Shown: positions 268-30,040, counted from the stretch's first letter. The stretch: 32,000 bases of DNA from Candidatus Electronema halotolerans (GCA_942493095.1 OW818675.1:870001-902000), one strand, 5' to 3'. Numbers and translations: made by a program. The notes: generated from the letters alone by a model not told the origin.

Positions 268-1370
268 GCCAGAGCTGTTCCTGTCCAGTCTGCGGGCGGC
301 AGGGGCTGCCCGCAGACTGCGCCAGCTGCCCGCAGTGCGATTCTGATTTGACCTGCTTTCAGGTGCTTGATTCCCTGTCCTCCAATAAGGCCGAGCAGAC
401 GGGCCGCCGTTTTTCGTGGCGGGCGCTGCTGGCAGGGGCTGCCTTCCTCCTGCTGCTGGCAGTGCTGGCCGCAGTCTGGCAAAGCAAGGTGCCGGGACCG
501 TTGCTGACAGCCTCCCAAGACCGCCAAGCTGCGCTGCCTGCTTCAGCTTCTGACGGCAAAATTCACATTGATGCCCAGATACGGATTCTCGATGACCGGC
601 AGGAGCGGGAAAACCGCCAGCACCGAGCTGCTCAATCTGTTGCCATTGAAGAAAAAAAACAGGTTGACAAGCCTGCGCAGGAGGAGGTGCGGCAGATGGT
701 GCCTGATGAGGAATCTTCTGATGCTCCGGCAGCGCAGGAAACTGTTGCGCCTGCGCTGCCGGAGCAGACAGAACAGGCCGACAGTGACAGCAGCGTCCCG
801 GAGCCGCTGCCAGTGGAATTGTCCGAGCCAGTTGCAAAAAAAGCTGTTGCTGCGGCATCTGCGCCTGATCAGCAAGCTGCCGAGCCTGCACCAGCACCGC
901 CGCCTGAGCTGCCAGTGCTGCAAGGCCGCCGCAAGCGGGCAGTGCGGACCCGGGCAGTGTCCGGCCTGCGCGAAGCCGCTGCAAAATCGGCAAACCAGAA
1001 GAACAGCAAAAGCACCTTGGTTTATCACGCCCAAAACGGCGAGACGGTCTGGGAGCTGGCTGAACGGTTTTACGGCGAGGGCAAATACTATCCTCTGATC
1101 ATGGAGCTGAATCCGCAGGTCGTGCAAGGCCGCGTCCGGGGCAGCGACAAAGTCCGGCTCCTTGCTGACCGGCGGCAGGCCGCAGCCCTGTATCAGCGCA
1201 GCACCGAGCAGCGCGACGGCCTGCTGCTCTGGAAGCACAAGGTGCAGCCGGGCGAGACGTGGCAGTCCATCTATGCCCGCTTCTTCCCGCCCAAATACTC
1301 CGGCATGGTTTTTTATCCCGGAGACCAGAAAGTGGTTCCCGGCAGCACGGTCAGGATTATTCTCCGTTGA
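264..1370 (+). CDS. Membrane-anchored zinc-ribbon protein with Pro/Ala/Glu-rich spacer and two C-terminal LysM-like repeats
   Basis: The N-terminus CSCPVCG...CASCPQCDSDL has paired CxxC motifs, as in a zinc ribbon. There is one hydrophobic helix (ALLAGAAFLLLLAVLAAVW). The C-terminus has two LysM-like segments (YHAQNGETVWELAERFYGEGKYYPLIMELNP and HKVQPGETWQSIYARFF...VVPGSTVRIIL). The ATG at 264 overlaps the upstream stop. Confidence 0.7.
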   Translation: MSQSCSCPVCGRQGLPADCASCPQCDSDLTCFQVLDSLSSNKAEQTGRRFSWRALLAGAAFLLLLAVLAAVWQSKVPGPLLTASQDRQAALPASASDGKIHIDAQIRILDDRQERENRQHRAAQSVAIEEKKQVDKPAQEEVRQMVPDEESSDAPAAQETVAPALPEQTEQADSDSSVPEPLPVELSEPVAKKAVAAASAPDQQAAEPAPAPPPELPVLQGRRKRAVRTRAVSGLREAAAKSANQKNSKSTLVYHAQNGETVWELAERFYGEGKYYPLIMELNPQVVQGRVRGSDKVRLLADRRQAAALYQRSTEQRDGLLLWKHKVQPGETWQSIYARFFPPKYSGMVFYPGDQKVVPGSTVRIILR

Positions 1371-1375
1371 AGGTG

Positions 1376-3184
1376 ATGGGACACACTTGTTTTTTCAGCC
1401 TGAAAGGGCTTTTTCATAAAAGACGGGCCGCCCAGCTTGAGGCGGAATGCCGACGGCTGCAGGAGGCTGCCGGGCAGGCTGAGGCGGCTGATGATCATCT
1501 CCGCGCTGCCGGGCTGCTGGAGCAAGTTCACACTCTCCGGCCTGAGAACGCGCTGCTCTTGCGGCTGGCCCGCTGCTGGCTGCGGGCCGGACAATGGCAG
1601 CAGGCTGCGGATGCCTACAGTGAGACAGGCTGTTCTGGGGCGGCAGATTGGTATGATGCCGGTTTCGCCTTGGCCAAGCTGGACCGCTTTGCGGTCTGTC
1701 TGCGCTGCTGGCGGCAGACCGGCTCAAGTCATCCAGCTTTTCTTGCCCAGCAGAAGCAGGTCAGCCTCCTGCTCCTTCAGGAACTGAGCCGCTGCTTGGA
1801 CGAGCAATCTTGGGCGCAGGAGGAGCAGGTCCGTGCTCTGCTGACCGAATTTTCCTTGACTGAACTGCCTGGCGGCCATGAGCTGCTGGCCCGTTGCGAC
1901 CGGGTGCGGCTGGCCCGGCTCTGGCAGGAAGACCGGCTGGAGGAGATCATGGCAATGGCGGCAGAGAACGATCTCAACCATCCGGCAGTGCTGGAAATTC
2001 AGGCCAAGGCCGCCTGCCAGCTTTTGGCTGGCCGCCAGTCAGCCGTTTCCGCCGCAGAGCTGCGGCAGTTCATGGACTGCTGGCTCTCAGCCCTGTTTCA
2101 CCCAGCCATTGCCCCACAGGCTGAAGCGGAACGGCAGGCTCTGCTGGAGTTTGGCGCAGACCTGCTGCGCAGGCACGCGGCCCGCTTGAATCACGATGAG
2201 CAGCTCATGCGGGAATGGGAGGAACTGCTTGCCTTGCTGCACAGATTGGCCCTGCTGCCTGCGGTGCGCGAGCAGAATCTGCCGCTGTGCACCCCGGCTC
2301 TGGCCCTGCGCACTGACCAGCAGGAGCAGTTCTGCACTTTGATCCGAACAAATCAGGAGCACTTTGCCGACCGCAGGGCATGGATTGCCGCCGGAGCTGC
2401 GTATGCCTCGGCCTCAGCCCTGCTGCTGGTGCGTGACAATGCCTGTCAGGATGCGCTCAAGGAGCTGGGCCGACTGGAGGAGCAGGGCGATGATCTCTTT
2501 CTCGCCCACGGGGCTGCTCAAGTGAGGACAGCCTGCGGTATTGAGGCCTTGCGGCACCGTCGCTGCCGGGAGGCCGAGGAAATTTTAGTCGGCGGCGAGC
2601 CGCAGGCGGGCTGGTCCGCAGAGCTGGAAAAAGAGCTGCTCGCAGTGCTGGCGCAGGAAAACGGTCACGAAGCACCCTGCCTTGCCGCCAGTCTTGGCAT
2701 TCTCAGCCTGCTGCCCAAAACTTCGCCGCCTGACGCAGCCGCCTGCGCCTTCTGCTCGGCCCTGACCAAATTAGTGCTGCGTCTGCACAATGGCAAGCAG
2801 GCCCGTCCGCAGCTTTTGGCCGCAGCAATGCAGCAGGCTGTCGCGCTCAATCCTGAAGACGAGTTTGCCCGGATGATGCTGGAGGAAGTCAGCATTGCCT
2901 TGGAGCTGGCTGAACTGCACGAGGCCGTGGATCAGGGCTGGCTGTCCAAAGCGGCCCGCATTGCTGCGGCCAGCCGCTATCAGCAGGTTGCCGAGCATTT
3001 TTTCACTGCCGCCCAGCAGGTCGCTGTCCAGCTGGAGCAGGGTCATTATCCTGATGACGAGGCCGCAATGTTGATTCTGGAAGACCTGCTCCGCAGCGTC
3101 AGCCGGGTTGATCCGGGCCATCAGATGATCAGCAGCCTCAGACGCGCATTGGATGATCTGCGGCTGAGGCAGGAGGGCGCATGA
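1376..3184 (+). CDS. Large all-alpha helical-repeat (TPR-like) protein, 602 aa
   Basis: This is a long GC-rich ORF. I chose ATG 1376 (MGHTCFF...), 5 nt after the upstream stop (1368-1370), rather than the track's alternative start at 1259 inside the preceding gene. Leu/Ala-rich amphipathic repeats such as LLRLARCWLRAGQWQQAADAYSETG...WYDAGFALAKL resemble TPRs. Its stop overlaps the next ATG (ATGA at 3181-3184). Confidence 0.6.
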   Translation: MGHTCFFSLKGLFHKRRAAQLEAECRRLQEAAGQAEAADDHLRAAGLLEQVHTLRPENALLLRLARCWLRAGQWQQAADAYSETGCSGAADWYDAGFALAKLDRFAVCLRCWRQTGSSHPAFLAQQKQVSLLLLQELSRCLDEQSWAQEEQVRALLTEFSLTELPGGHELLARCDRVRLARLWQEDRLEEIMAMAAENDLNHPAVLEIQAKAACQLLAGRQSAVSAAELRQFMDCWLSALFHPAIAPQAEAERQALLEFGADLLRRHAARLNHDEQLMREWEELLALLHRLALLPAVREQNLPLCTPALALRTDQQEQFCTLIRTNQEHFADRRAWIAAGAAYASASALLLVRDNACQDALKELGRLEEQGDDLFLAHGAAQVRTACGIEALRHRRCREAEEILVGGEPQAGWSAELEKELLAVLAQENGHEAPCLAASLGILSLLPKTSPPDAAACAFCSALTKLVLRLHNGKQARPQLLAAAMQQAVALNPEDEFARMMLEEVSIALELAELHEAVDQGWLSKAARIAAASRYQQVAEHFFTAAQQVAVQLEQGHYPDDEAAMLILEDLLRSVSRVDPGHQMISSLRRALDDLRLRQEGA

Positions 3185-3572: not shown

Positions 3573-6500
3573 ATGCCTGACAAGACAGCCCGCCTGCTCG
3601 AATATCTTGCCGCGCTGACCAAACTCAGCAGCAAAAACATTTACAGCCTTGATGAATACGAACGGGTTTTCTGGCTGCACAGTCTGCCCCGCGAGTCGCC
3701 GCTCTGCTTCTGCCGGGCATGGAAAGCGGAAGAGCAAGACGATGGCCTCTGGCTGACTGTAAAAAAAGCTCCGCCGCGAGCCGCTGCGCCTCAGCCTCCT
3801 GATGACTGCGTTCTCTGGCTGCGGCAATATGCGTCGGCAGATTGCAAGGAACCGCCGAAGCTGGAGCCGTCTGTCATCCTTGACTGCGCTAAAACCAATT
3901 CGGAGAGTGAAGCGGAACCAGTCAGAACATTGCATCTGAAGGATTTTCCGGCAGTTCAAGAGCCGTGGCTGCCTTGGGCCGAAGACGATCCTGTCCGTCG
4001 GGCGTACAAAGAGCTGTTTCTGCTGCATCAGGAGCTGCAAAAAAACGGTGAGCAATGCGAGCTGGTTTTAGGGCTGGGCCTGCTGCGCTGGCAGAACAGC
4101 AGCGGACGGGAAATCAAACGGCATGTTGCGGCTGCCGGAGTTTCCTTGGTTTTTGAGGCGGAAAAAGGGCTATTCACAGTTCGGCAGGACAGCGACAAGG
4201 CCGAGATTGAGCTGAATATGCTCGACGATCTGCCGCTTGATGCCCGCAGTTTGATTGATGAGGGCCGGGCCGCTGTCAGCGCGGCGGCGTATGACCGCGC
4301 CGAACTGGATGCCGTTCTGCGCAAAATCGCCCATTCCTTGGGTGCTGGCGGACAAGGGGAATATCATTCTGACCGGCTGGAACCTGCTTCACAGCCGAGC
4401 AAGGACAAACCGCTGATCGAATACGCTCCGGCCTTGATTTTGCGGAAGCGCAGTCAGCGCGGGCTGGATCAGCTATTGACCGAATTGAAGGCCCAGCCTG
4501 CTGAAAGGCTGAAAGGGTTCGGGCCGCTCTGCGGCATTACAGCGGAACCGGGGGAGCAGCCGGGCAAGGCCGCCCCGCCGGGCGAGCTGTATTTTCCTCT
4601 GCCCGCCAATGAGGAGCAGAAGAAAATCATCCGCACCTTGGACATGCAGGCCGGAGTGCTGGTGCAGGGGCCGCCCGGCACTGGCAAATCCCACACCATC
4701 GCCAATCTCATCTCGCATCTGCTGGCAACCGGCCAGCGAATTTTAGTGACCGCAAAGACGAAACAGGCGTTGCAGGTGCTGCATGGCAAGTTGCCGGAAG
4801 AGCTGCGGCCTCTTGCCATCAGTTTGTTGGGAGATGAGAAAAGCTCGCTGGCCCGGAGCGTGGAAGGCATCCTTGACAAACTTGACAAACTCTGGGATGA
4901 ATCCGAGAACCGCCGCCGCACAGATGAGCTGGAAGCGCGGCTTCATGCCTCACGCAAGGCCAAGGCTGCCGCTGAACAGCAGATTCTCGCCCTGCGCGAA
5001 AAGGAGACCTTCACGCATCAACTTGCAGGTGGCCGCTGTTCCGGCACTGCCGCCGAAATTGCCCGCCAGCTCCGCAGCGATGCGGACAAATTTGCTTGGT
5101 TCACAGATTCCATTCCCGCAGATGCGCCGCTGCCTTTGTTAGGTAATGAAGCTGATTTTCTTTGTAAATATTTTGCCGAAGTTTCTCAGGCTGACGAAAA
5201 GGAGCTGACCTTGCAGCTTCCTGCCTCGGAAACGCTGCCGCCAGTCAGCAAGGTGGAGGCGGCTTTTCAAAAAGAGGCTGCTGCCAAGGAAAAGGCCGCG
5301 CCGGGTGCTGAATGGCTGCAACGGCTGCAATGGTCGGATCAAGTGGTTATGCTTCTTTGCGGCAAGGAGGCGTTGTGCTCCCTGCATCAGCAGGCACAAG
5401 ACATGGCGGCAGCTTTCCGCACGCTGCGGCAGAAGCCCATGCCTTGGCTGGAAAAGGCGACGCATGAGATTCTCAGCGGTCAAGACAGAATCTGGCGGGA
5501 ACTGCTGAAATGTTCGCAAGAAAGCGTCAGCAAACTGGAGGTGCTGGAAGCCAAGAACAAAGCGGCTGACATTGACATTCCGCCGGACATCAACCGAAAA
5601 GCCCTGCTGTCCGCTGTCAAGGAATTGCATGAGCATTTCAAAGCAGGCGGAACAGCGGGCCGCTGGATTTTCAAGCCGGAGGTGGTGCGCAAGCATGGCG
5701 GCATGATCAGCCAAGTCAAAGTGGACGGGCAGGACTGCCTCAGCTTGGAGCCGCTGGAAAAACTCGTTGCTTGGCTGACTGTTGAGCAGCAGCTTGATCA
5801 GGCTTGGTCTTTCTGGCAAGGCAGGGCGAAGCGCGATTCTGGGCCGTTCCGCTTGCAGCTTGTTCAATTGGATGAGATGCACAAGGCACTGGAAAAAGTG
5901 CTTCTGCTGCGCCAGATGCAGAAGCAGGTGCGAACGGCGGCAGAAGCCTGCGGGCTGAACGTGGAGCAATGGACTGAAGCGGCCATGCTGGAGCTTGCCG
6001 AAGACTGCCGGGCGGCTCTGGCTTGGTTGCATCAGGAGCAGATAAGCAGCTCAATCAATAAGTTGCAATGTCGTTTTGCTGAGTTGGCCAAAAATCCCAA
6101 AGCGCATCCTGTAGCTGGACAGCTCGCCGCCAGCATTGCTGAACGGGACAGCGCAGCTTATGCCCGCCTGCTTGAGGAACTTGATGTTTTGGCCAAGAAA
6201 GCAAAACAGATGCAGATAAAACAGCAGCTCATCGCCAAACTCTCAGTAGCTGCGCCGACTTTGGCGGCAGAGCTGAACAGCGGTCATGATCGGCAGCTTT
6301 GGGCGAAGCGACTGGCAATGCTCGCAGATGCGTGGGCGTGGGCGCAGGCTTCCTCATGGCTGAAAGATTTTCTGCAAACTGATCTGGCTGCCCTGCTGCG
6401 GCAGAGCCAGCGGCTTGAGGAGGAGATACAGCGTGATCTGAGCAAATTGGCCGCAGAAAAGGCATGGAGCTGCTGTTTTGAGCGGATGAGCGATATGCAC

Positions 6501-7955
6501 CGCAAGCATTTGACTGCTTGGCCAAAGGCAATGCAGAAAATTGGAAAAACAGGAAAAGGGAAATTTGTTTCCGTCTATCGAAGAGATGCTCAATATCACC
6601 TCAGCCAGTTCCGGGATGCTGTGCCCGCGTGGATCATGCCCTTGCATCAGGTGTATGAGACAGTCAATGCTGGAAGCGGATTGTTTGACATCATAATCGT
6701 GGATGAGTCTTCACAGTGCGGCCCGGAAGCCCTGCCGCTCTTCCTGCTTGGCAAACGCCTGATTGTGGTCGGCGACGATAAACAGGTCAGTCCAGATTCC
6801 GTGGGTATAGAGAAGGAGCATGTGCATCATCTCATGCGCACATGGCTGCATGATTTTCCTTTTGCTAAGTCCTTTGACCTTGAGACAAGCCTCTTTGATC
6901 ATGCTGATGTTCTTTTCAGTGGGAAAAATCAAAAAATTACTCTACTGGAGCATTTCCGCTGTGTGCCGGAAATCATCCGCTTCAGCAGCAAACTGTGTTA
7001 CAAGGGCAACCTGATTCCGCTTCGCCGCTATTTGCCAGACCGCTTGGAGCCGCTGCAATCGGTCTTTGTGGAAACTGGCTATCGGGAAGGAAGCCGTCAG
7101 CGGGTCATCAATCGGCCTGAAGCGGAAGCCATTGCTGAAAAGGTGAAGCAATGCTGCGCAGATGAGCGGTATCAGGGCAAATCAATGGGCGTGATCGTCC
7201 TGCAAGGTACAGCGCAGGCTGACCTGATTCAAGGCTTGCTCGTAGAGGCGATTGGTGCGGAAGAAATGCAGAAGCGCAGAATCATTTGCGGCAATGCGCC
7301 CAGCTTTCAGGGCGATGAGCGGGATGTCATCTTTCTCAGCATGGTGGCTGCGCCTAATGCCAGATTCACTTCCATGACTGGGCTGAAATACGAGCAGCGG
7401 TTCAATGTTGCTGCCAGCCGGGCGCGGGATCAGATGTGGCTTTTTCATTCGTTGACGCTCAATGAGCCTCGTTTGGGAAGCAACTGCCTGCGGCGCAGAC
7501 TGCTGGAGCATTTTCAGAACCCGGATGCCGGGATTGACCGCATTCAAGGTCTCAACATTGAGGAACTGCGGCTGGCTGCGCATCAGGCTGAGAGAAAGAC
7601 AGAATCCGCGCCCAAACCTTTTGATAGCTGGTTTGAGGTGGATGTTGCCCTTCAGATTGCAGGACGGGGGTATAACGTTGTGCCGCAGTATCCATTTGCA
7701 GGCAGGCGGATTGACTTGGTTATTCAAGGAAGCGCGGCGCAACTGGCAGTGGAGTGTGACGGCGATTATTGGCACGGCCCGGAACGCTATGAAGCTGACT
7801 TGGCCCGGCAGCGGCAGCTCGAACGCTGCGGCTGGCAGTTCTTCCGCATCCGGGAATGCCTTTACTATGCTGATGCGGACAAGGCACTTGCACCGCTTTG
7901 GCCGTTGCTGGAGCGCATGGGGATAGTGCCGGATAACAGTGCATTAAACCAGTGA
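3573..7955 (+). CDS. Giant SF1 (Upf1/DNA2-like, AAA_11/AAA_12-type) helicase with C-terminal DUF559/Vsr-like PD-(D/E)xK nuclease domain, 1460 aa
   Basis: Walker A is VLVQGPPGTGKSHTIANL, and Walker B/motif II is FDIIIVDESSQC followed by LIVVGDDKQVSP. Later SF1 motifs are LLEHFRCVPEIIRFSS, VIVLQG, SFQGDERDVIFLSMV and RFNVAASRARDQMWLFHS. The C-terminus RIDLVIQGSAAQLAVECDGDYWHGPERYEADLARQRQLERCGWQFFRIRE matches the DUF559/Vsr endonuclease pattern. Confidence 0.85.
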   Translation: MPDKTARLLEYLAALTKLSSKNIYSLDEYERVFWLHSLPRESPLCFCRAWKAEEQDDGLWLTVKKAPPRAAAPQPPDDCVLWLRQYASADCKEPPKLEPSVILDCAKTNSESEAEPVRTLHLKDFPAVQEPWLPWAEDDPVRRAYKELFLLHQELQKNGEQCELVLGLGLLRWQNSSGREIKRHVAAAGVSLVFEAEKGLFTVRQDSDKAEIELNMLDDLPLDARSLIDEGRAAVSAAAYDRAELDAVLRKIAHSLGAGGQGEYHSDRLEPASQPSKDKPLIEYAPALILRKRSQRGLDQLLTELKAQPAERLKGFGPLCGITAEPGEQPGKAAPPGELYFPLPANEEQKKIIRTLDMQAGVLVQGPPGTGKSHTIANLISHLLATGQRILVTAKTKQALQVLHGKLPEELRPLAISLLGDEKSSLARSVEGILDKLDKLWDESENRRRTDELEARLHASRKAKAAAEQQILALREKETFTHQLAGGRCSGTAAEIARQLRSDADKFAWFTDSIPADAPLPLLGNEADFLCKYFAEVSQADEKELTLQLPASETLPPVSKVEAAFQKEAAAKEKAAPGAEWLQRLQWSDQVVMLLCGKEALCSLHQQAQDMAAAFRTLRQKPMPWLEKATHEILSGQDRIWRELLKCSQESVSKLEVLEAKNKAADIDIPPDINRKALLSAVKELHEHFKAGGTAGRWIFKPEVVRKHGGMISQVKVDGQDCLSLEPLEKLVAWLTVEQQLDQAWSFWQGRAKRDSGPFRLQLVQLDEMHKALEKVLLLRQMQKQVRTAAEACGLNVEQWTEAAMLELAEDCRAALAWLHQEQISSSINKLQCRFAELAKNPKAHPVAGQLAASIAERDSAAYARLLEELDVLAKKAKQMQIKQQLIAKLSVAAPTLAAELNSGHDRQLWAKRLAMLADAWAWAQASSWLKDFLQTDLAALLRQSQRLEEEIQRDLSKLAAEKAWSCCFERMSDMHRKHLTAWPKAMQKIGKTGKGKFVSVYRRDAQYHLSQFRDAVPAWIMPLHQVYETVNAGSGLFDIIIVDESSQCGPEALPLFLLGKRLIVVGDDKQVSPDSVGIEKEHVHHLMRTWLHDFPFAKSFDLETSLFDHADVLFSGKNQKITLLEHFRCVPEIIRFSSKLCYKGNLIPLRRYLPDRLEPLQSVFVETGYREGSRQRVINRPEAEAIAEKVKQCCADERYQGKSMGVIVLQGTAQADLIQGLLVEAIGAEEMQKRRIICGNAPSFQGDERDVIFLSMVAAPNARFTSMTGLKYEQRFNVAASRARDQMWLFHSLTLNEPRLGSNCLRRRLLEHFQNPDAGIDRIQGLNIEELRLAAHQAERKTESAPKPFDSWFEVDVALQIAGRGYNVVPQYPFAGRRIDLVIQGSAAQLAVECDGDYWHGPERYEADLARQRQLERCGWQFFRIRECLYYADADKALAPLWPLLERMGIVPDNSALNQ

Positions 7956-9474: not shown

Positions 9475-9735
9475 TTACTCGTAATGGCTCCACATGCGAT
9501 ACACTTTGATCAGTTTCTCATCTTCAAAAATTTCATAGACCAAGCGATGCTGCTTGTTGATGCGCCTGCTGATCAAACCATTCATGTTGCCTTTCAAAAA
9601 TTCATATTCCGGCGGATACTGCAAGGGATTTTGTTGGATGATCTCTATCAGTTTTAGAACTTTTTCTTTCAGGCCGCTGGAGGCTAACCTTTTGGCATCC
9701 TTCTGGGCTTGCGTCATGAATTTGACGGTGTACAT
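9475..9735 (-). CDS. yoeB: Type II toxin, Txe/YoeB family (86 aa)
   Basis: ...LKGNMNGLISRRINKQHRLVYEIFEDEKLIKVYRMWSHYE matches the YoeB C-terminal signature (SRRI..EHRLVY...I...R.HY). The ATG at 9735-9733 overlaps the antitoxin TGA (TGATG). The track's 9741 start is a TTG two codons upstream. Confidence 0.85.
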   Translation of the reverse strand: MYTVKFMTQAQKDAKRLASSGLKEKVLKLIEIIQQNPLQYPPEYEFLKGNMNGLISRRINKQHRLVYEIFEDEKLIKVYRMWSHYE

Positions 9736-9950
9736 CACCAATCCAGTTTATCCAGTGTAACACCGTTGCAATCCGGTTCTTTTCTGGCATCCTGAATGCT
9801 CTGAACCATGCCGTCAATTGATCTTAAATATTCATCGTCACTAACGTAATCTGACTGATCTAAAATTTTTATCTCGTTTTTAAAGTGCTTCAGCAGCCAC
9901 AAAAATTTTTCGACGATGCCATCGTCTATGCGCAATGTGACCGTTTTCAT
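9735..9950 (-). CDS. Putative cognate antitoxin (71 aa, family not recognised)
   Basis: This small acidic ORF lies immediately upstream of the YoeB-like toxin and is translationally coupled to it. It shares the same AT-rich composition. It does not look like canonical YefM/Phd by eye. Confidence 0.6.
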   Translation of the reverse strand: MKTVTLRIDDGIVEKFLWLLKHFKNEIKILDQSDYVSDDEYLRSIDGMVQSIQDARKEPDCNGVTLDKLDW

Positions 9951-9994
9951 GCTATCCTTTTCGATATACTACTCATTCAGAAATACAACGAACA

Positions 9995-10029
9995 GGAATC
10001 AGGCTGAAAACAACTCAACACCTGATTCC
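9995..10029 (-). terminator. Hairpin between acsB stop and the TA cassette (candidate terminator/insulator)
   Basis: There is a 9-bp perfect stem, ggaatcagg (9995-10003) with cctgattcc (10021-10029). On the minus strand it is followed by a T-rich stretch (tgttcgttgtatttctg). Confidence 0.3.
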
Positions 10030-19945: not shown

Positions 19946-20356
19946 TTTGTCTTCTCCTTCCGGGTGGCGGGTTTTCTAACCCATTTGTACAGAAATAACA
20001 ATGGCTGATGCGTGCTGCTCATCAACCGGCATGATCAAAACGGCTTGCTGCGGCCCTTGCCGGACAAATTTTTTTCCGATTCGTGCAGCTATTTGAATCA
20101 TAAGGAAAAAATATAATACACCCTGATCAGGCAATTTCTTTGTCAGCAGCGGCAAAATTACCTATAATTAAAACGCTGTCAATCTTTTTTTGCAGTTTTT
20201 TTTTCACAATTTTGGCAAAAAAAACACCGGCTGTCTATCTTGCTGTAATGAAGGTTTTTTATCCGAACCAAATTCCCTTCCAATTCTCCCCTGCTGTTTC
20301 ACCGCCAAGCCGCCTGCTGCGCCCGATGAAAAAACAATGCCGATGAAAAAATCGAC

Positions 20357-20385
20357 TTGACTGAAGTTGAAAAGTATCATATTTT
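20357..20385 (+). promoter_or_regulatory. Candidate sigma70-type promoter for the porin-like gene
   Basis: TTGACT (20357-20362), a 17-nt spacer, then TATTTT (20380-20385). An AAAGGAGA RBS precedes ATG 20448. This is pattern match only. Confidence 0.25.
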
Positions 20386-20447
20386 GTATTCATGGTACGG
20401 AAATTTTGCTTGGGGCTGACCTGAAAACAGTGAAAAGGAGATGAACA

Positions 20448-21695
20448 ATGAAGAAAGTGCTTGTTGCCGGTGCTGCTCTGATGCTGGCCGGTGCCACTGC
20501 GGCGGATGCGGGCGTGAACCTGAGTGGCGATGCCCGCGCCACCTATGTGGGCAAACAGGATTACCAGCGCAATATCGATCAAGACAGTGCGGACGGTTAT
20601 CACGATTATATTGAATCGCGCATTGGTCTGAATATTGACGGCAAGACCTCGAAAGAAGGCATGTTTGTCAAGGCCCGCGTCTATTTTGACGGCTATGGGT
20701 TTGAGGATGACGCGCCGTGGAATGGCACGGAGAATCAGCAGGTCACAGTTGACTACGCCTACATGCAGATTCCTCTGGGGCCGAACTGGGCGATCAAGGC
20801 GGGTCGGGTCAACCCTGACTTCTCCAAGTTCTATTCGTGGAACATTCGTCCCACCCGCGTCTATGCCATGTACCAGAACGGCAACTTTGCCTTCAAGCCG
20901 TTTCTCGGTGTGAAGCAGGAGGAGACGAGCACTGATACAGACAACTGGGATGACAACGACTTCATGGAATACGGTTTTGTCGCCTCTCTCAAGCTGCTGA
21001 CCGGCTGGACAGTGAAAGCTTATGGCCGCTATGATGACGACCAGCGGGAGTGGGATAAATCTGCGGATGAGGTATACAGGGTTACAGGAGACGTTGCCTC
21101 TGGTTTTAAGGTTACTGAGTCGTATCCAACGACATCTCACAAGGACAAGTCCGGCTTCACCGGTGATCTGGTCCTCACCAATGACGGCGCAGCCTGTCCC
21201 ATCGGCTTCACTGCCGAGCTGGCCTACAAGGCCGCTGACCTGCAAGGCACGGAAGATGACGGCATCGGCTCTTATGTCATGCTGTCCAAGAGAATGACCG
21301 ACAGATTCACCCCGGCAATTCTGGCAGGCATGACCAAAGACGGCTACGTGGCTGACAACGACTTTGGTTTTGTCATGGTCGGCGGCGACACCTCTTCACA
21401 GGTGATGCGCGTTGGTGACGGCGGCGACCTGCTCTTTGGTGCCTTTGTTGCCAACTACGCAGCCAGCGAGCGTCTCACTCTGACCGGCAACCTGCTCTAC
21501 GCTGATTTTGACAACGACGAGGCAGGTGCCTTCGACAACGCTATTGAGGTCTCAGGTGTTGCCTCTTATGCGCTCTCTGACTCAGCCAGCCTGACCTACA
21601 AAGCTGGTTATTTGGCCCCCAGCGTCATCGATGGCGGCGGTGTTGCGGAAGATGCCTATTTTGGCCATCTGCTGCGTCTGAATCTTGCCTTCTAA
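20448..21695 (+). CDS. Outer-membrane beta-barrel (porin-like) protein
   Basis: The signal peptide is MKKVLVAGAALMLAGATAADA. The sequence has an alternating hydrophobic/polar, Gly/Asp/Tyr-rich pattern and ends in Phe (LRLNLAF), typical of OMP barrels. The family was not identified. Confidence 0.7.
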   Translation: MKKVLVAGAALMLAGATAADAGVNLSGDARATYVGKQDYQRNIDQDSADGYHDYIESRIGLNIDGKTSKEGMFVKARVYFDGYGFEDDAPWNGTENQQVTVDYAYMQIPLGPNWAIKAGRVNPDFSKFYSWNIRPTRVYAMYQNGNFAFKPFLGVKQEETSTDTDNWDDNDFMEYGFVASLKLLTGWTVKAYGRYDDDQREWDKSADEVYRVTGDVASGFKVTESYPTTSHKDKSGFTGDLVLTNDGAACPIGFTAELAYKAADLQGTEDDGIGSYVMLSKRMTDRFTPAILAGMTKDGYVADNDFGFVMVGGDTSSQVMRVGDGGDLLFGAFVANYAASERLTLTGNLLYADFDNDEAGAFDNAIEVSGVASYALSDSASLTYKAGYLAPSVIDGGGVAEDAYFGHLLRLNLAF

Positions 21696-23330: not shown

Positions 23331-23517
23331 GAATTGCTCCTTGTGGTTGTGCTCCGGCCTATACAGGCAGGGCCGGAATTGCATTGTTGCTGGGGCATCG
23401 TGCGCTTTCCGCTCCTGCTCCCAGCTTGCTTGGTCAGGCCAAGATACGGCCCAGCCTGTGTTTTGTCAATAAAATAACCCAACTTGACAGCTATTGCGCA
23501 ACAAAATCAGATGGTAG

Positions 23518-23603
23518 GCTGAATCAGTTGATTGCTGATCAGATGCTGTCTGAATAGCACCAGTTCTCCAAAGTGAGGACAATAAAAAATTAACTGATTC
23601 AGC
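23518..23603. promoter_or_regulatory. Inverted-repeat / palindrome set (CTGA-N-TCAG family) upstream of protease gene 1
   Basis: gctgaatcagtt (23518-23529) is the exact reverse complement of aactgattcagc (23592-23603). The palindrome ctgatcag (23535-23542) and the half-related ctgaatagc (23550-23558) lie between them. The function is unknown. Confidence 0.35.
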
Positions 23604-23767
23604 TATCCAATCTTTTCTCTCTCTGGCTGTTTCTTTTATTTGAGGGCAACGAACGGATACATCTGGAGGAGTGGCAAGGTTCAGTTTGAGACATGAAAAA
23701 CGATTATTTTTCACTTGCTTTTTTTGCTAAAAGAAGGATAATGGGTCGGATAACTATTTGGAGTTAG

Positions 23768-24826
23768 ATGAATAATTTTACACAGGACATAGTGAGATCA
23801 ATGAAAAGAGCAATTATTTTAGACCCGAAGATGCGTGCAGAATTTGTTCATCGATTCGATGAGATAAATGTAGAGTATGTTAAGCGGGTCGATAGGCTGC
23901 GAACCGTTAGACTTGAACCTCGCATATTACCCTATACCAAGGATAGGATGAAAGAACTCATAGATAAATTGCATAAAGACGAAAATATGCCTCTTGATGC
24001 TGCGACGGCGCAAATCATGGAACGGTTTGCTCGACCGGCATATTTTGTTCAGGACGATTCTTTTGACACACGGAATACCCCGTCAACCTCGGAGTTGATA
24101 GACAACACGGTGAATAAGGCCAAGAGCTTGATTGAGAAAGCTCTTCCCAGTGTCGGTCGTATCAACCTGCGCAACCACAGATTATCCTGGGTCGGGACCG
24201 GATGGGTAATTGCGGAAAACATCTTGGTCACGAATCGGCATGTAGCAACCGAGTTTGCCGGACATGAGGGAGATAGTTTTGTTTTTATCAGAACAGCAGG
24301 GCAGACCGCCAAGGCCGAATTAGACACTGTCCGTGAATACAAGTCCCAGAAAGAAAAGCTCTATAAAATTCGCAAGGTGCTGTGGATTGCCCCTCCAAGT
24401 TTTGAGCATGATATAGCATTCCTGTCAATAGATAAAGAATCAAATTATAATAATCCGCAGCCGCCCCCGATTGATCTGATGGATATAAGCAGCTTTGAAG
24501 ATATTCCGAACGATCATTGGATCGCCGTGATCGGATATCCCGGCAGGAGTTCCGATGATATTACAGACCAGCAACTCATCTTTGATGGTATTTATGATGT
24601 CAAACGAATACAACCCGGTCAGATAAAGGCAAAAAACAGTGCTGCCGGTATAGTGGAGCATGATGCATCAACTTTGAATGGCAACTCCGGGTCGGTGGTG
24701 CTCGACCTCACTTCCGGCAAAGCCATCGGACTTCATTTCCTCGGCATACTGGGGGAAAGGAGAATCAACAAAGCTGTGGCCGCACCTGTCATCAGGGAAC
24801 TGCTCTATAAGCATGTCCTCAGTTAA
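23768..24826 (+). CDS. Cytoplasmic-looking trypsin-like (chymotrypsin-fold, Trypsin_2-type) serine protease with ~90-aa N-terminal helical module (352 aa)
   Basis: The catalytic triad context is WVGTGWVIAENILVTNRHVA (His), EHDIAFLSI (Asp) and LNGNSGSVVLD (Ser). There is no N-terminal hydrophobic signal sequence. GGAG lies 4 nt upstream of the ATG. The coding sequence is AT-rich. Confidence 0.8.
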   Translation: MNNFTQDIVRSMKRAIILDPKMRAEFVHRFDEINVEYVKRVDRLRTVRLEPRILPYTKDRMKELIDKLHKDENMPLDAATAQIMERFARPAYFVQDDSFDTRNTPSTSELIDNTVNKAKSLIEKALPSVGRINLRNHRLSWVGTGWVIAENILVTNRHVATEFAGHEGDSFVFIRTAGQTAKAELDTVREYKSQKEKLYKIRKVLWIAPPSFEHDIAFLSIDKESNYNNPQPPPIDLMDISSFEDIPNDHWIAVIGYPGRSSDDITDQQLIFDGIYDVKRIQPGQIKAKNSAAGIVEHDASTLNGNSGSVVLDLTSGKAIGLHFLGILGERRINKAVAAPVIRELLYKHVLS

Positions 24827-24899
24827 AACATCTTTGCAAGGGTATTCACTGCTGCAAGGAAATTAAACCATCACATTCAGTTAATTGGAGGAGAACATC

Positions 24900-27074
24900 A
24901 TGGACAGCAATCTTATTTTTTCAGACCCTAAGATGCGTGAAGAATTCCTTGATCGTTTCGACGACCTACGCAACGAGTTTCTTGCTCGTACACCTCTCAG
25001 TGAGGACGAAAAGAAGGAATTGGAAGCTCACACCAAAGATGATGCCGACAAGGCTGTGAAAATCGTCAAAGAAGGTCTCAGTACCCCTGTATCCAAAGTA
25101 CTGGAGGCGATTATCATTCGATATGGTCGCCCGGCGTATTTTGTTCAGAATGACTCGTTCAATACGGATAATACGCCCTCGACGGCTGACAAAGTTGACC
25201 AAACAGTCAATAAGGACAGAGCTGTGATTGAGAAAGCCATTCCGAGTGTTGGCCGCATCAACTTGCGCAATCATAGAATGCCTTGGGTCGGCACCGGCTG
25301 GGTAGTTGCAGAAAATGTCCTTGTAACAAACCGCCATGTGGCAGCCGAATTCGCTAGGGAAAGAAATGGAAATTTTGTCTTTGTTGGCAACACCAAGGCC
25401 AGCTTGGATACCGTCCAAGAATACGATGCGGGTGGCAGAGAGAAGATGTATCGTCTTCAAAAGGTGCTGTGGATCGCTCCGCCCGACGGGGAACATGACG
25501 TGGCATTTCTGTCCATCGATAAAAAATCAAACTATGATGATCATCCGCAGCCCACCCCGATTGAGTTGATGGATCAGAAGGCGTTTGCCGCTTTATCCGT
25601 CAAACATTGGATTGCCGTGATCGGATATCCGGCCTTGAGTCCCTATAACGACCATGCGGATCAGCAGCGTATCTTTGATGGAGTTTTTAATGTCAAGAGG
25701 ATGCAGCCTGGTCAGATCATGGCAATACCTCGCGGCATGAGTGCAGTGGAGCACGATGCGACAACATTAGGCGGTAATTCGGGATCGGTCGTCCTTGATC
25801 TTGAAACGGGCAAGGCCTTGGCACTGCATTTTGGTGGCATCGAAGGAAAAAGCAACAGTGCTGTGGCGGCTCCTGTTGTTTCAGAACTGCTGGATAAGCA
25901 TATATTCGGTCTCAGACGACAAGTTTTTCCTGTTACGACACCACCATCTCAAGACTCGAAAGGTGAATCTCCGTCTTGCCAAGAGAGCTGTGCTGTATCA
26001 ACAGGTGGTACGGCAACTTGGAAGATACCGCTTGAAGTATCAGTGACTGTGGGAACTCCTGCGATGGTTTCCGCCGACGCTGGCACGTCAACTGCTCCAA
26101 GTGCTCCCAAAACTTCGGCAGCGTCTCTCAAGGCTTCTACAGCTATCAAGGAAGGTCTGTTCGGTAAGCGATCACCCGACTTTTCCCTTGATGAGCTAAG
26201 GGAGATGTTTTCCTTGTCTGCTCTAACAGAAAACGAATTCAACTGGAATACGGCCTTATCGTTAGCTGTCGCAAGCGAGCTTGCATATAGAAGCAAATCA
26301 GTTGTTGAGCGCACGGCGGCAGAATGGGGACTCAGTGCATGCAGATTTATAGACCAAGAGGAAACTCAATGTTTTATCGCCTCCCATGAAGGCAGTGTGC
26401 TGGTTTCTTTCCGAGGTTCCGAGAGCTTGGGTGATTGGCTGGCCAATATGAACGTTTTTACAGTCAAAAGGGAGTATGGAGATGTACATGAAGGCTTTTA
26501 TAACGGCTTTGCCGACGTACGGGAGATGCTAGAGGAAGAACTTGAGCGACGCTCGCCCGATCAAGTTCTGCTTACCGGTCACAGTCTCGGAGGAGCCTTG
26601 GCGACAATCGCAGCAGCGGAATGGAATGACAAATACACCATAGGTAGTGTTTACACCTTCGGTCAGCCTGCTGTCGGGAAAGAAGACTTTGAAGAGTTTT
26701 TCAGAAGCAAATTCTTCAGGACGAATTACAGCGATAAGTTCTTTAGATTCGTCAATGATGACGATATGGTCACACGCCTGCCTCCCCTGTACCGACATCT
26801 CGAAAAACTCTATCATTTCGACACAGGAAGCGAATTGACGACTCGAACTGAGTCTGTCTCAGGTATGGCGGCGACGACGGGCGAGCCGAAGATGATGTCG
26901 GAGAAAGAATTTACCAACCTTCAGTTGCTCATGAGGAGAACTGGCAGAGGAGATGCCGCTATTATCACTGAATCAGTTGACCGCCCTGTTTTGGAAGGAT
27001 TTTTTCCGAGTGTAAGCGATCATAGCTTAAACGAATATATCAGAAAGATTAAAAGCAGAATTTCTGCTTCGTAA
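24900..27074 (+). CDS. Fusion: paralogous trypsin-like serine protease, Ser/Thr/Pro/Ala linker, class-3 (Lipase_3) alpha/beta-hydrolase lipase domain (724 aa)
   Basis: The protease triad is VTNRHVA, EHDVAFLSI and LGGNSGSVVLD (Ser codon 25779-25781). The lipase nucleophile elbow is LLTGHSLGGALA (Ser codon 26583-26585), with VNDDDMVTRLP (Asp) and SDHSLNEYI (His). I chose ATG 24900, with GGAGGAG 6 nt upstream. The track start at 24885 is a TTG. Confidence 0.85.
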   Translation: MDSNLIFSDPKMREEFLDRFDDLRNEFLARTPLSEDEKKELEAHTKDDADKAVKIVKEGLSTPVSKVLEAIIIRYGRPAYFVQNDSFNTDNTPSTADKVDQTVNKDRAVIEKAIPSVGRINLRNHRMPWVGTGWVVAENVLVTNRHVAAEFARERNGNFVFVGNTKASLDTVQEYDAGGREKMYRLQKVLWIAPPDGEHDVAFLSIDKKSNYDDHPQPTPIELMDQKAFAALSVKHWIAVIGYPALSPYNDHADQQRIFDGVFNVKRMQPGQIMAIPRGMSAVEHDATTLGGNSGSVVLDLETGKALALHFGGIEGKSNSAVAAPVVSELLDKHIFGLRRQVFPVTTPPSQDSKGESPSCQESCAVSTGGTATWKIPLEVSVTVGTPAMVSADAGTSTAPSAPKTSAASLKASTAIKEGLFGKRSPDFSLDELREMFSLSALTENEFNWNTALSLAVASELAYRSKSVVERTAAEWGLSACRFIDQEETQCFIASHEGSVLVSFRGSESLGDWLANMNVFTVKREYGDVHEGFYNGFADVREMLEEELERRSPDQVLLTGHSLGGALATIAAAEWNDKYTIGSVYTFGQPAVGKEDFEEFFRSKFFRTNYSDKFFRFVNDDDMVTRLPPLYRHLEKLYHFDTGSELTTRTESVSGMAATTGEPKMMSEKEFTNLQLLMRRTGRGDAAIITESVDRPVLEGFFPSVSDHSLNEYIRKIKSRISAS

Positions 27075-27148
27075 GTTCCTCCTGCTCCTACTCGTGCAAA
27101 TTTGTTTTGGGGCAAGCACGAACATGATGTAGTATTCGGCAGGATGCC

Positions 27149-27180
27149 GTCCCCTATATCAAAAAAATGATACAGGGGAC
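27149..27180. terminator. Hairpin between convergent protease-lipase and glnS genes
   Basis: gtcccctatatc (27149-27160) pairs with gatacaggggac (27169-27180) as a 12-bp stem with one mismatch. The loop is A-rich on the plus strand and T-rich on the minus strand. There is no flanking U-tract. Confidence 0.35.
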
Positions 27181-27195
27181 ATAGCCCTGTGCAGT

Positions 27196-28890: not shown

Positions 28891-29575
28891 ATTTGCAACT
28901 GGAGGTGGACTTTTTGTAAGTCTGAATTCGTATGATTATACTCTTCAAATAACTGATATTAAAAAACAAGACTCAAGAGTATTCTAAAAGCAGCCACCAA
29001 GCCATTTTCAGAGCTTCTGGATGAGAGCTGCCAAGGCCTGAGTCTTGCCGAGAGGTACTATATCCAAGTGGAGCGAAAAAAGAAAGTGTCCCAAGGCAAG
29101 ACCGCACAGATGAGAGGACGTTCTCTGGGTGCATAATTTCTTGTGAACGTAACGGTTCATCAGTGCTGAAAAAAAACAAAGAAGACGGCATGAACACCGT
29201 CGCGGTCACGGATCACGGGATTGCCGCCTTCCAAGTGGCCGAAAACGTTGCTGCGGAGCGCGTCCGCAAAGACAGGATGCAGACTTTTGATTTGAAAAAA
29301 TTTGTTCGCAGCTTTAAGCTGCAAGAGGCAGGCATTGGGCCGAGGGAGGTGCTGGCAAAAATGCGCTGCCTTGGCAGAAAAGCAGGCAGTGATGGTGGAG
29401 ATTAGGGCTGTCATTGAATATATTTATGAGTTACGCAGTTGGAAAAAAGTGTCGAAGTGCCGCATGGCCTGATCAGGGCACCAAAAAAAGCCGTATTTAC
29501 AACGATATGATTTATCAGGAACAAGTCATGCGTTTGCCTTGTGGATGTTGACTGGTGCGGCACGGTTGTCTGGCC

Positions 29576-29595
29576 GGGCAATATTGACATTGCCC
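29576..29595. repeat. Degenerate relative of the GGGCAAT...ATTGCCC palindrome
   Basis: gggcaat (29576-29582), attgac, then attgccc (29589-29595). It shares the arm sequence of the 28-nt palindromes at 15129 and 30152 but has a different loop. Confidence 0.35.
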
Positions 29596-29686
29596 CGGAG
29601 AAAGAGCGACGATAAAAATAATTTGAGGAGAACACTCTGTATCCTCTCATAATCTTCCTTTGCTTCTGCGAGGCTATTAAACTACG

Positions 29687-30040
29687 ATGAAAAAACTTAT
29701 GATTCTTAAATTGTATTCGATTCCTATTGCATTTACAATAGGATCCTGTTTGACGTTTTACACATTTGGCATCTGTATCCCAAATATCCTTCAAGGACCT
29801 GTTGTGTTTTCAACGTTGAGCGAAAATTCTGTATCACTTGCCCCTGTCGTATTTCTGATCGGGATGTTGTTAGCGTTATTGTCCGCGATATGTCCTTCAG
29901 TTCGGCTATACAAATGGCTTGAAGGCGAAACGGATGGAATGGAACTCTGTCCACATTGTGGAGGGTTAACTGATGATAAAACTGGTCGCTATGGTCCATA
30001 CAGAAAATGTCTGGCTTGCGGAAAAAATAGCAAAAGATAA
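29687..30040 (+). CDS. Small membrane protein with C-terminal zinc ribbon (117 aa), hypothetical
   Basis: There are two or three hydrophobic helices (LYSIPIAFTIGSCLTFYTFGICI; LAPVVFLIGMLLALLSAICPSV). The C-terminus CPHCGG...GRYGPYRKCLACG is reminiscent of the topoisomerase-type C4 finger. The sequence is very AT-rich and I see no clear RBS. Confidence 0.4.
   Translation: MKKLMILKLYSIPIAFTIGSCLTFYTFGICIPNILQGPVVFSTLSENSVSLAPVVFLIGMLLALLSAICPSVRLYKWLEGETDGMELCPHCGGLTDDKTGRYGPYRKCLACGKNSKR

Follow-up and report, generated by a model that had tools for sequence, protein, structure and literature searches.

Paralogous trypsin-like proteases with a class-3 lipase attached to one of them form a candidate conflict module in the cable bacterium Candidatus Electronema halotolerans

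An island of unusually low G+C content (positions 23385-27195) in a 32,000-nt stretch of the genome of the cable bacterium Candidatus Electronema halotolerans (GCA_942493095.1 OW818675.1:870001-902000; hereafter the window), carries 2 genes, A and B, which encode paralogous trypsin-like proteases, the second of them fused to a class-3 lipase. The best-supported reading of the pair, based on its foreign composition, the signal-less nature of both proteins and the conflict-system contexts of their relatives, is that of a protease-gated effector of the predicted NucA-trypsin class with the lipase as the effector: cutting by the proteases would free the lipase of B or switch it on, and the lipase would then kill the cell. 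Our confidence in this reading is evenly divided. An earlier reading of the window, made from the sequence alone, had proposed the island as a candidate undescribed conflict or toxin module. The same 3 lines of evidence favor the conflict-module part of that proposal, whereas the abortive-infection function that it evoked can only be inferred.

The A-B pair and its protease module

Gene A (23768..24826, + strand) encodes a stand-alone trypsin-like protease of 352 aa, and gene B (24900..27074, + strand), located 73 nt downstream in the same orientation, encodes a 724-aa protein in which a trypsin-like protease is followed by a class-3 lipase. Both assignments draw on open reading frame (ORF) calls, Pfam searches, homolog alignments and AlphaFold2 (AF2) models. 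In the NCBI annotation, the genes correspond to GCAAIG_04135 (341 aa, called from M12) and GCAAIG_04140, with 100% identity in both cases. The sequence-only reading had placed the 2 ORFs at exactly these coordinates and at this distance, and had considered them paralogous because of shared identical runs; BLASTP recovered every one of these runs and aligned the 2 proteins with 189/339 identical residues (56%, E = 6e-126).

The HMM and structure searches recommended in the sequence-only reading identified Trypsin_2 in both proteins (residues 143-322 of A and 131-309 of B), Lipase_3 in B and S1B-type folds in the protease domains, which also matched the Pfam family Trypsin and display the double beta-barrel and the His-Asp-Ser triad order of the Peptidase S1 (chymotrypsin) fold. 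The S1B-like domain occupies 24143..24826 in A, with H158 (24239-24241), D215 (24410-24412) and S307 (24686-24688) as the triad, and 25239..25916 in B, with H146 (25335-25337), D200 (25497-25499) and S294 (25779-25781). The triad columns are invariant or nearly so across 37 stand-alone homologs aligned with A and 34 lipase-fused homologs aligned with B, and both triads are intact. Foldseek searches with the AF2 model of A (predicted local distance difference test score [pLDDT] 88, predicted template modelling score [pTM] 0.89) retrieved the S1B proteases Spl, V8 and Esp and the exfoliative toxins as the best PDB matches, and the same was true of B. The S1B enzymes (V8/GluV8, Spl, Esp and exfoliative toxins) are the best matches by structure and by sequence and have the GNSGS and TNxHV motifs in common with A and B, but the identity is only approximately 20%. 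Furthermore, S1B enzymes are secreted and carry a signal peptide and a short propeptide, whereas A and B are signal-less and begin with a helical extension of 113-125 residues.

Consistent with the earlier statement that neither protein has a Sec-type signal peptide, Kyte-Doolittle analysis revealed no signal peptide or transmembrane segment in A or B: both N-termini are hydrophilic, and the maximum over 19 residues is 1.46 for A and 1.30 for B. The extension covers aa 1-125 of A (23768..24142; alignment, AF2 and profile search) and aa 1-113 of B (24900..25238), where it is homologous to that of A (BLASTP, alignment and profile search). It contains the conserved motifs EFLDRF (EF-x-x-RF) and LEAII-x-RF-x-RPAY-x-VQ, and the extreme N-terminus is strongly conserved in the family. 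No Pfam family was found in the extension of either protein. A profile built from 17 extensions and run against 1.84 billion representative proteins retrieved 50 proteins, many of them short fragments. Because all 50 matches are N-terminal and the identifiable ones belong to this same protease family, we regard the extension as a family-specific, pro-region-like element rather than a mobile adaptor. A promiscuous EAD- or Death-like adaptor was considered and rejected on the same profile result and on the absence of a Pfam match.

Linker and lipase of gene B

In the AF2 model of B, 2 folded domains are joined by a disordered linker. This Ser/Thr/Ala/Pro-rich segment (aa 340-425, 25917..26174; pLDDT <50) is a candidate site of proteolytic release. 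Within it, 70-100 residues past the catalytic Ser, lies the motif T373-ATWKIPLEVSVTVGT-P387 (26016..26060), with the alignment consensus [TS][WF]x[IV]P[LV]x[IV][ST][IV]xxGxP and a nearly invariant P377. Almost every lipase fusion carries this motif, as do most of the PLD fusions and some of those with NucA; the conservation of a linear motif independently of the effector type suggests that it might serve as a docking or cleavage element. A second motif, EGLFG (E418-G422, 26151..26165), marks the linker/lipase junction in the alignment, with E418 being nearly invariant.

The lipase domain and the C-terminal tail extend over 26175..27074, with the Lipase_3 match (PF01764) at residues 502-630 (E = 1.8e-25). 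Alignment to the Thermomyces lanuginosus lipase identified S562 in GHSLGG (26583-26585) and D622 in NDDDMVTRLPP (26763-26765) as catalytic residues. The putative catalytic His is H708 in SDHSLNEY (27021-27023), conserved as SDHxLxxY; this residue is assigned by the motif and by fungal lipase numbering. The last segment aligned with the fungal lipase is separated from H708 by 46 residues (aa 662-707, 26883..27020; alignment and model), approximately 35 more than in the fungal enzyme. This region comprises a conserved helix with low-confidence flanks and is a candidate autoinhibitory insert.

Effector exchange and tandem organization among relatives

The C-terminal domains of the 120 best homologs of B are diverse, including Endonuclease_NS (61), Lipase_3 (43) and PLDc_2 (10) and, more rarely, Peptidase_M10 (2), TPR-S (2), Evf (1) and Peptidase_M74 (1). 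The protease modules of A and B are 37-45% identical to those fused to Endonuclease_NS, and stand-alone family proteins of approximately 335 aa are very numerous. Modules recombine: between P0005 and B, identity drops from 79% over the lipase to 28% over the protease. In 1 case (P0052, 974 aa), Trypsin_2, Lipase_3 and Endonuclease_NS are combined in a single polypeptide. Unfused Lipase_3 genes adjoin family members in loci L059, L060, L078, L099 and L114, and an S8 peptidase-Lipase_3 fusion (L001, 5860-8502) is encoded 2 genes upstream of a Tryp-Lipase. Many trypsin-only members are labelled by JGI as "endonuclease G" or "endonuclease G, mitochondrial", a name apparently carried over from Tryp-NucA fusions, which would mislead automated surveys. 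Matches from a metagenome scan for close relatives of B were mostly distant trypsin-only or lipase-only proteins.

In a neighbor-joining tree of the protease module, A groups with P0122, P0123 and P0124 (type T1), and type T2 unites the protease of B with the second gene of L172, P0002, P0125, P0127 and P0006. Every T1 gene with visible context, namely, those in the window, L172, L174 and L175, is followed by a T2 gene, which in the window is the member bearing the lipase. T1 and T2 are 55-66% identical to each other compared to 63-77% within each type, arguing that the tandem is an old, co-inherited unit and not a local duplication. Strict pairing is a property of T1 rather than of T2: the lipase fusions nearest to B, namely P0002 (the closest homolog of B, 70% identity), P0003 and P0004, are solo genes without T1. 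Not every Tryp-Lipase therefore requires A, a T2-lipase can occur by itself, and T1 seems to play an accessory role. The gene just upstream of P0002 (L173, 1-99) does not encode a T1 protease; its end (...KEINAAYDYLRKKF) resembles a DnaJ J-domain-type sequence.

In 2 loci, which hold the closest relatives of A, the tandem is accompanied by lipoprotein genes. It is preceded in both by a lipoprotein of 326-329 aa (L172, 6931-7911; L174, 1300-2289), with the lipobox L-[ST]-G-C, 63% mutual identity and no Pfam family, and followed in L174 by a lipoprotein of 289 aa (4819-5688). These lipoproteins have no counterpart in the window.

Genomic context of the relatives

The sequence-only reading had proposed homolog neighborhoods as a check on the conflict-module idea. 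We surveyed 1 genome per species, finding 329 relatives, and analyzed 80 loci, in which neighbors were clustered and representatives scanned against Pfam. Relatives were found beside STAND or NACHT NTPases, EAD1, TIR, MoxR-vWA/VMAP and integrase genes as well as on conjugative plasmids, in agreement with that idea. A recurrent operon consists of a family protease (approximately 335 aa), a divergent trypsin paralog with EAD1 or TIR, and a STAND NTPase. The second trypsin paralog, with EAD1 or TIR, is present in approximately 27 of the 80 loci, and the STAND NTPase (AAA_16/nSTAND1 with EAD1, sometimes with NucA) in 20, whereas in 7 others, representing a Streptomyces variant, a NACHT protein takes the place of STAND. 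EAD1/STAND parts are found, for instance, in the related loci L009, L019 and L035. In L057, L065, L069, L074 and L083, a fusion of 860-980 aa, the size of a PLD fusion, immediately precedes a trypsin paralog of approximately 390-430 aa.

Other arrangements involve MoxR-like ATPases and mobile elements. In Bradyrhizobium barranii, the gene order is integrase, Tryp-Lipase, Tryp-VMAP-C, MoxR-like AAA, S8 peptidase and Tryp-PLD. The family is represented on 20 plasmids, 13 of which are conjugative. On the Rhizobium phaseoli plasmid pRphaN671d, a Tryp-NucA gene lies beside genes for a trypsin, a MoxR ATPase and an SAV_2336 N-terminal domain-related protein, the last of which presumably provides the vWA part of a MoxR-vWA pair.

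Family members are also found on their own. In Pseudomonas aeruginosa (NZ_CP133752.1), a solo Tryp-NucA (L091, 7758-9686) is flanked by ilvA and a LysR gene, with cyoB-E lying upstream; judging by the gene order and the PAO1 numbering, this gene is presumably PA1327 ("probable protease"). Two papers on the evolution of phage resistance list PA1327 mutations, with R245P being the sole change in 1 escape mutant and a high-impact indel occurring in another.

Foreign composition and origin of the island

The G+C content of the island is 0.468, compared to 0.567 in the remainder of the window. This is the minimum among all windows of the island's length and approximately 4 standard deviations below the non-overlapping ones (0.467 versus 0.568 +/- 0.023). 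Similarly, G+C at third codon positions is 0.48 for A and B, compared to 0.61-0.78 in the 7 other window genes measured. The four 60-nt G+C counts (24, 27, 38 and 40) on which the sequence-only reading had based its claim of foreign composition were reproduced exactly, and the sliding-window analysis upheld the claim itself, with this 3.8-kb stretch being the lowest in the window. The island also lies where that reading had put it, between glnS and a kinase pair made up of an APH-like and an AAA_33 gene.

Both Ca. Electronema aureum and Ca. Electrothrix scaldis retain the kinase pair, with a hybrid response-regulator/histidine kinase ahead of it, and at this site neither genome has the protease pair or glnS. 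Both neighborhoods are rearranged on both sides, and no clean empty site could be defined. The foreign composition of the A-B pair and its absence from the kinase-pair site in the 2 related cable bacteria support a recent horizontal acquisition, and the pair is patchily distributed among cable bacteria. Around 23385-27195, a search for insertion scars revealed neither flanking direct repeats nor a tRNA gene, an integrase or an insertion sequence. A phage origin was considered and discarded: tblastn against 50,697 phage records yielded matches to generic class-3 lipases only and never to the protease module. A pattern scan of IMG/VR viral contigs likewise returned no relative.

Relationship to described systems

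The closest described counterpart of the pair is "System 3", the NucA-trypsin (NucA-peptidase) conflict system predicted in section 32 of Kaur, Burroughs, Iyer & Aravind 2020 (eLife 9:e52696; PMC7159879). As described there, trypsin paralogs and NucA are fused or encoded in 1 operon, with EAD1 on a trypsin paralog and a STAND NTPase with a Death-like domain as optional parts; the systems are enriched in multicellular bacteria, and release of the effector by a proteolytic cascade was proposed (PMC7159879). The core of such systems, paralogous trypsin-like peptidases, is present here as 2 co-oriented paralogs with intact triads. Both A-B and NucA-trypsin operons comprise several paralogous trypsin-like peptidases, 1 of which has a C-terminal effector fusion, and the hosts of both tend to be multicellular or filamentous. 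In addition, relatives of A and B adjoin EAD1 and STAND genes, as in the systems outlined in PMC7159879. On the basis of the shared architecture and of alphaproteobacterial and plasmid members (L078 and L082; H16-H32), A and B appear to belong to the same trypsin family.

The differences concern the effector, the accessory components and the host. The NucA effector is replaced by a class-3 lipase: Pfam searches of A, B and further large ORFs of the window found no Endonuclease_NS, and the word "lipase" is absent from PMC7159879. Among the window ORFs scanned, none encodes EAD1, STAND or bDLD2 components. The host is a desulfobulbacean cable bacterium, compared to an alphaproteobacterium in the described case. 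Thus, the module is not undescribed in the sense of the sequence-only reading, as far as the protease part is concerned, since this probably belongs to the family predicted in PMC7159879, whereas the variant with a lipase in place of the nuclease does go beyond it. What is new in A-B comprises this replacement, the T1/T2 tandem in 4 loci, the linker motif, the lipase segment of approximately 35 residues and the lack of a nearby sensor NTPase; the T1/T2 pairing, the motif and the segment are not mentioned in the parts of PMC7159879 that deal with these systems.

Two other kinds of systems are related in logic. Evans et al. 2025 (bioRxiv 10.1101/2025.11.14.688446; PMC12642450) showed experimentally that an alpha/beta-hydrolase zymogen becomes lethal after 2 protease cuts. 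As proposed here for B, a defense-associated protease acts in those modules on a latent hydrolase with a lipase-like fold, and site-specific cleavage removes an inhibitory fragment, leading to cell death (PMC12642450). However, their protease is caspase-like, encoded by a separate gene and fused to a sensor, and their hydrolase belongs to a different, uncharacterized alpha/beta-fold family (PMC12642450), whereas in A-B an S1B-like protease is fused to Lipase_3 and accompanied by a second protease paralog, with no evident sensor. In B, the disordered linker, its conserved motif and the extra segment ahead of the catalytic His are circumstantial signs of such control by cleavage. The polymorphic toxin systems (Zhang et al. 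2012, as cited in PMC7159879) resemble the B family in that variable C-terminal toxin domains are appended to a conserved N-terminal part and modules recombine. Unlike in those systems, no secretion or trafficking domain, immunity gene or linkage to a secretion system is found here.

The pair is not part of a named defense system, in line with the sequence-only reading, which had not recognized its architecture as one; PADLOC identified no named system in the window. The PADLOC models matched by the pair ("nacht", RT-Protease_XI and PDC-M35A) are hit through protease-domain similarity only, for which reason membership of the corresponding systems was rejected; the match to PDLC03010 ("nacht"; E = 4.6e-20) is confined to the protease module. 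Defense of the bNACHT or Avs-type STAND kind was also rejected, because no STAND or NACHT NTPase is encoded among the window ORFs scanned.

Proposed mechanism and alternatives

According to the protease-gated lipase reading, B would be produced in the cytoplasm as a latent fusion consisting of the extension, the protease, the linker and the lipase with its extra segment, and A, the T1-type protein, would be the co-evolving paralogous protease that accompanies T2 proteins such as B. We infer that infection or another invader-derived signal would most plausibly act as the trigger, upon which both proteases would cleave B, in trans or in cis, with cuts in the linker and perhaps also next to the extra segment. 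Once freed or activated, the lipase would degrade membrane lipids, killing or arresting the cell, so that in the cable-bacterium filament 1 cell would be sacrificed. In a more specific version, which we regard as unlikely, T1 and T2 would form a self-contained, sensor-less cascade of 2 proteases, in which the extensions sense the trigger or autoinhibit the proteases, T1 licenses T2, and T2 cuts the linker motif and excises a plug from the lipase.

The lack of a signal peptide, a transmembrane segment and a downstream immunity ORF favors an intracellular, protease-gated lipase. Also in its favor are the exchange of effectors on a constant protease module, the T1/T2 pairing, the other linkages of Lipase_3 to the family, the linker with a motif shared across effector types and the experimental precedent of the hydrolase zymogen. 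Several observations weigh against it. The NucA-trypsin class is itself a computational prediction, as presented in the relevant section of PMC7159879, and we found no literature on a lipase version or on experiments with this protease family. Pfam and PADLOC searches of the window placed neither a sensor NTPase nor an EAD adaptor nor any further known defense gene next to the pair, and the nearest candidate defense gene is 16 kb away. The lipase fusions closest to B are solo genes, and the lipoproteins flanking T1-T2 in L172 and L174 hint at an envelope-related role. Finally, the AF2 model of B has no inter-domain confidence (pTM 0.50) and hence provides no structural demonstration of lipase autoinhibition.

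Some of these observations would fit an exported, polymorphic-toxin-like weapon, for which the N-terminal part would direct export by an unrecognized route and the protease would process or free the C-terminal toxin, be it a lipase, nuclease, PLD or peptidoglycan hydrolase, for use against competitors. The C-terminal repertoire is of the toxin type, including Peptidase_M74 (a murein endopeptidase), Peptidase_M10 and Evf, and the recombination of modules, the strongly conserved extreme N-terminus, the lipoprotein genes next to T1-T2 and the many solo copies without a sensor, among them the P. aeruginosa gene next to ilvA, all point the same way. Nevertheless, we consider export improbable, given that A and B possess no signal peptide, transmembrane segment or known trafficking domain and that the 121 nt separating B from the stop codon of the convergent glnS are non-coding and contain no ORF that could encode an immunity protein. 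Moreover, neighbor clustering revealed no widely recurring small downstream partner among the relatives, with only clusters of approximately 375-430 aa found in 2-3 loci each, no secretion-system genes occur in the neighborhoods examined, and many relatives are embedded in cytoplasmic STAND, EAD1, TIR or MoxR loci.

The isolation of the pair could alternatively reflect the loss of a partner: as an orphaned effector module, parted from its NTPase sensor during transfer, it would now either be inert or depend on a sensor or adaptor that acts in trans from another part of the genome. Full systems elsewhere have at least 3 genes, no NTPase or EAD is encoded among the ORFs scanned in the 32-kb window, and the genes of EAD-linked effectors frequently lie at dispersed genomic positions, as noted in the corresponding part of Kaur et al. 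(PMC7159879). We find this explanation slightly less probable than export, however, since neither ORF is disrupted, each has a ribosome-binding site and its full set of catalytic residues, and no adaptor for recruitment in trans is evident, the extension not being a recognized EAD and being limited to this family. Furthermore, T1-T2 recurs without NTPases in 3 other loci, which argues for self-sufficiency of the tandem. Least of all do we favor an ordinary degradative or housekeeping protease and lipase serving nutrient acquisition or turnover: the hydrolase domains are generic, resembling secreted staphylococcal proteases and secreted fungal lipases, but a role outside conflict is very hard to reconcile with the missing export signal, the foreign composition and patchy occurrence among cable bacteria, the fusion of the same module to non-specific nucleases and PLD, its linkage to STAND, TIR and EAD1 genes and its presence on conjugative plasmids.

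Expression signals and other features of the window

Gene A is preceded by a non-coding leader (23385..23767, + strand; G+C 0.43), characterized by composition, ribosome-binding site and repeat scans. It contains a 16-nt inverted repeat (23518-23533 / 23588-23603; 94% complementary, arms 54 nt apart), which might act as an operator or form a hairpin in RNA. Rfam searches at gathering thresholds identified no structured RNA family in the leader or elsewhere in the window. Promoter and terminator scans yielded nothing beyond the level of shuffled sequences, and the leader contains no + strand promoter scoring better than chance. The ATG of gene A at 23768 follows a Shine-Dalgarno-like GGAG (23760-23763), whereas the NCBI call starts at Met12 (23801). 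The true start is uncertain: the ATG at 23768 has the better ribosome-binding site, with a 4-nt spacer, and homologs align only from approximately residue 16 of the 352-aa form. Gene B has a GGAGGAG ribosome-binding site (24887..24893, + strand) 6 nt upstream of its ATG and an alternative TTG start at 24885.

Besides the kinase pair and glnS, the window encodes a Wood-Ljungdahl cluster. Another gene product, which we would guess to be an outer-membrane-type protein, had no family match in any library searched. A 1460-aa Upf1-like helicase (AAA_11/AAA_12; 3573-7955, + strand) with a C-terminal REase_MTES_1575 domain is a possible defense gene, given its matches to the PADLOC models PDC-S37 (1.5e-45), Mokosh MkoA/MkoC and Hhe; the 2 ORFs upstream of it (264-1370 and 1259-3184) have no Pfam or PADLOC match. 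Other short patches of low G+C content (0.41-0.43) are located at 9501-10000, 20001-20500 and 29501-30000. The last of these overlaps an ORF of 117 aa (29687-30040) without a PADLOC match, the product of which has an N-terminal half that is hydrophobic by eye and a zinc-ribbon-like C-terminus (CxxC...CxxC).

Implications

Control of death effectors by proteases is increasingly seen as a major logic in prokaryotic immunity, one that parallels the caspase and gasdermin pathways of eukaryotes. The A-B pair provides a very small test case of this logic, consisting of 2 genes without a sensor NTPase, with an assayable lipase output and candidate cleavage elements. If functional, it would indicate that membrane-targeting lipases can occupy the effector position of these systems, that the paired T1/T2 paralogs are a conserved functional unit and that such modules work without a linked NTPase. 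If the sensor-less cascade were true, a multicellular cable bacterium would possess, without any NTPase, a minimal bacterial counterpart of the initiator/executioner type of protease death cascade. The sacrifice of single cells in such a filamentous host would bear on how a conductive filament responds to infection.

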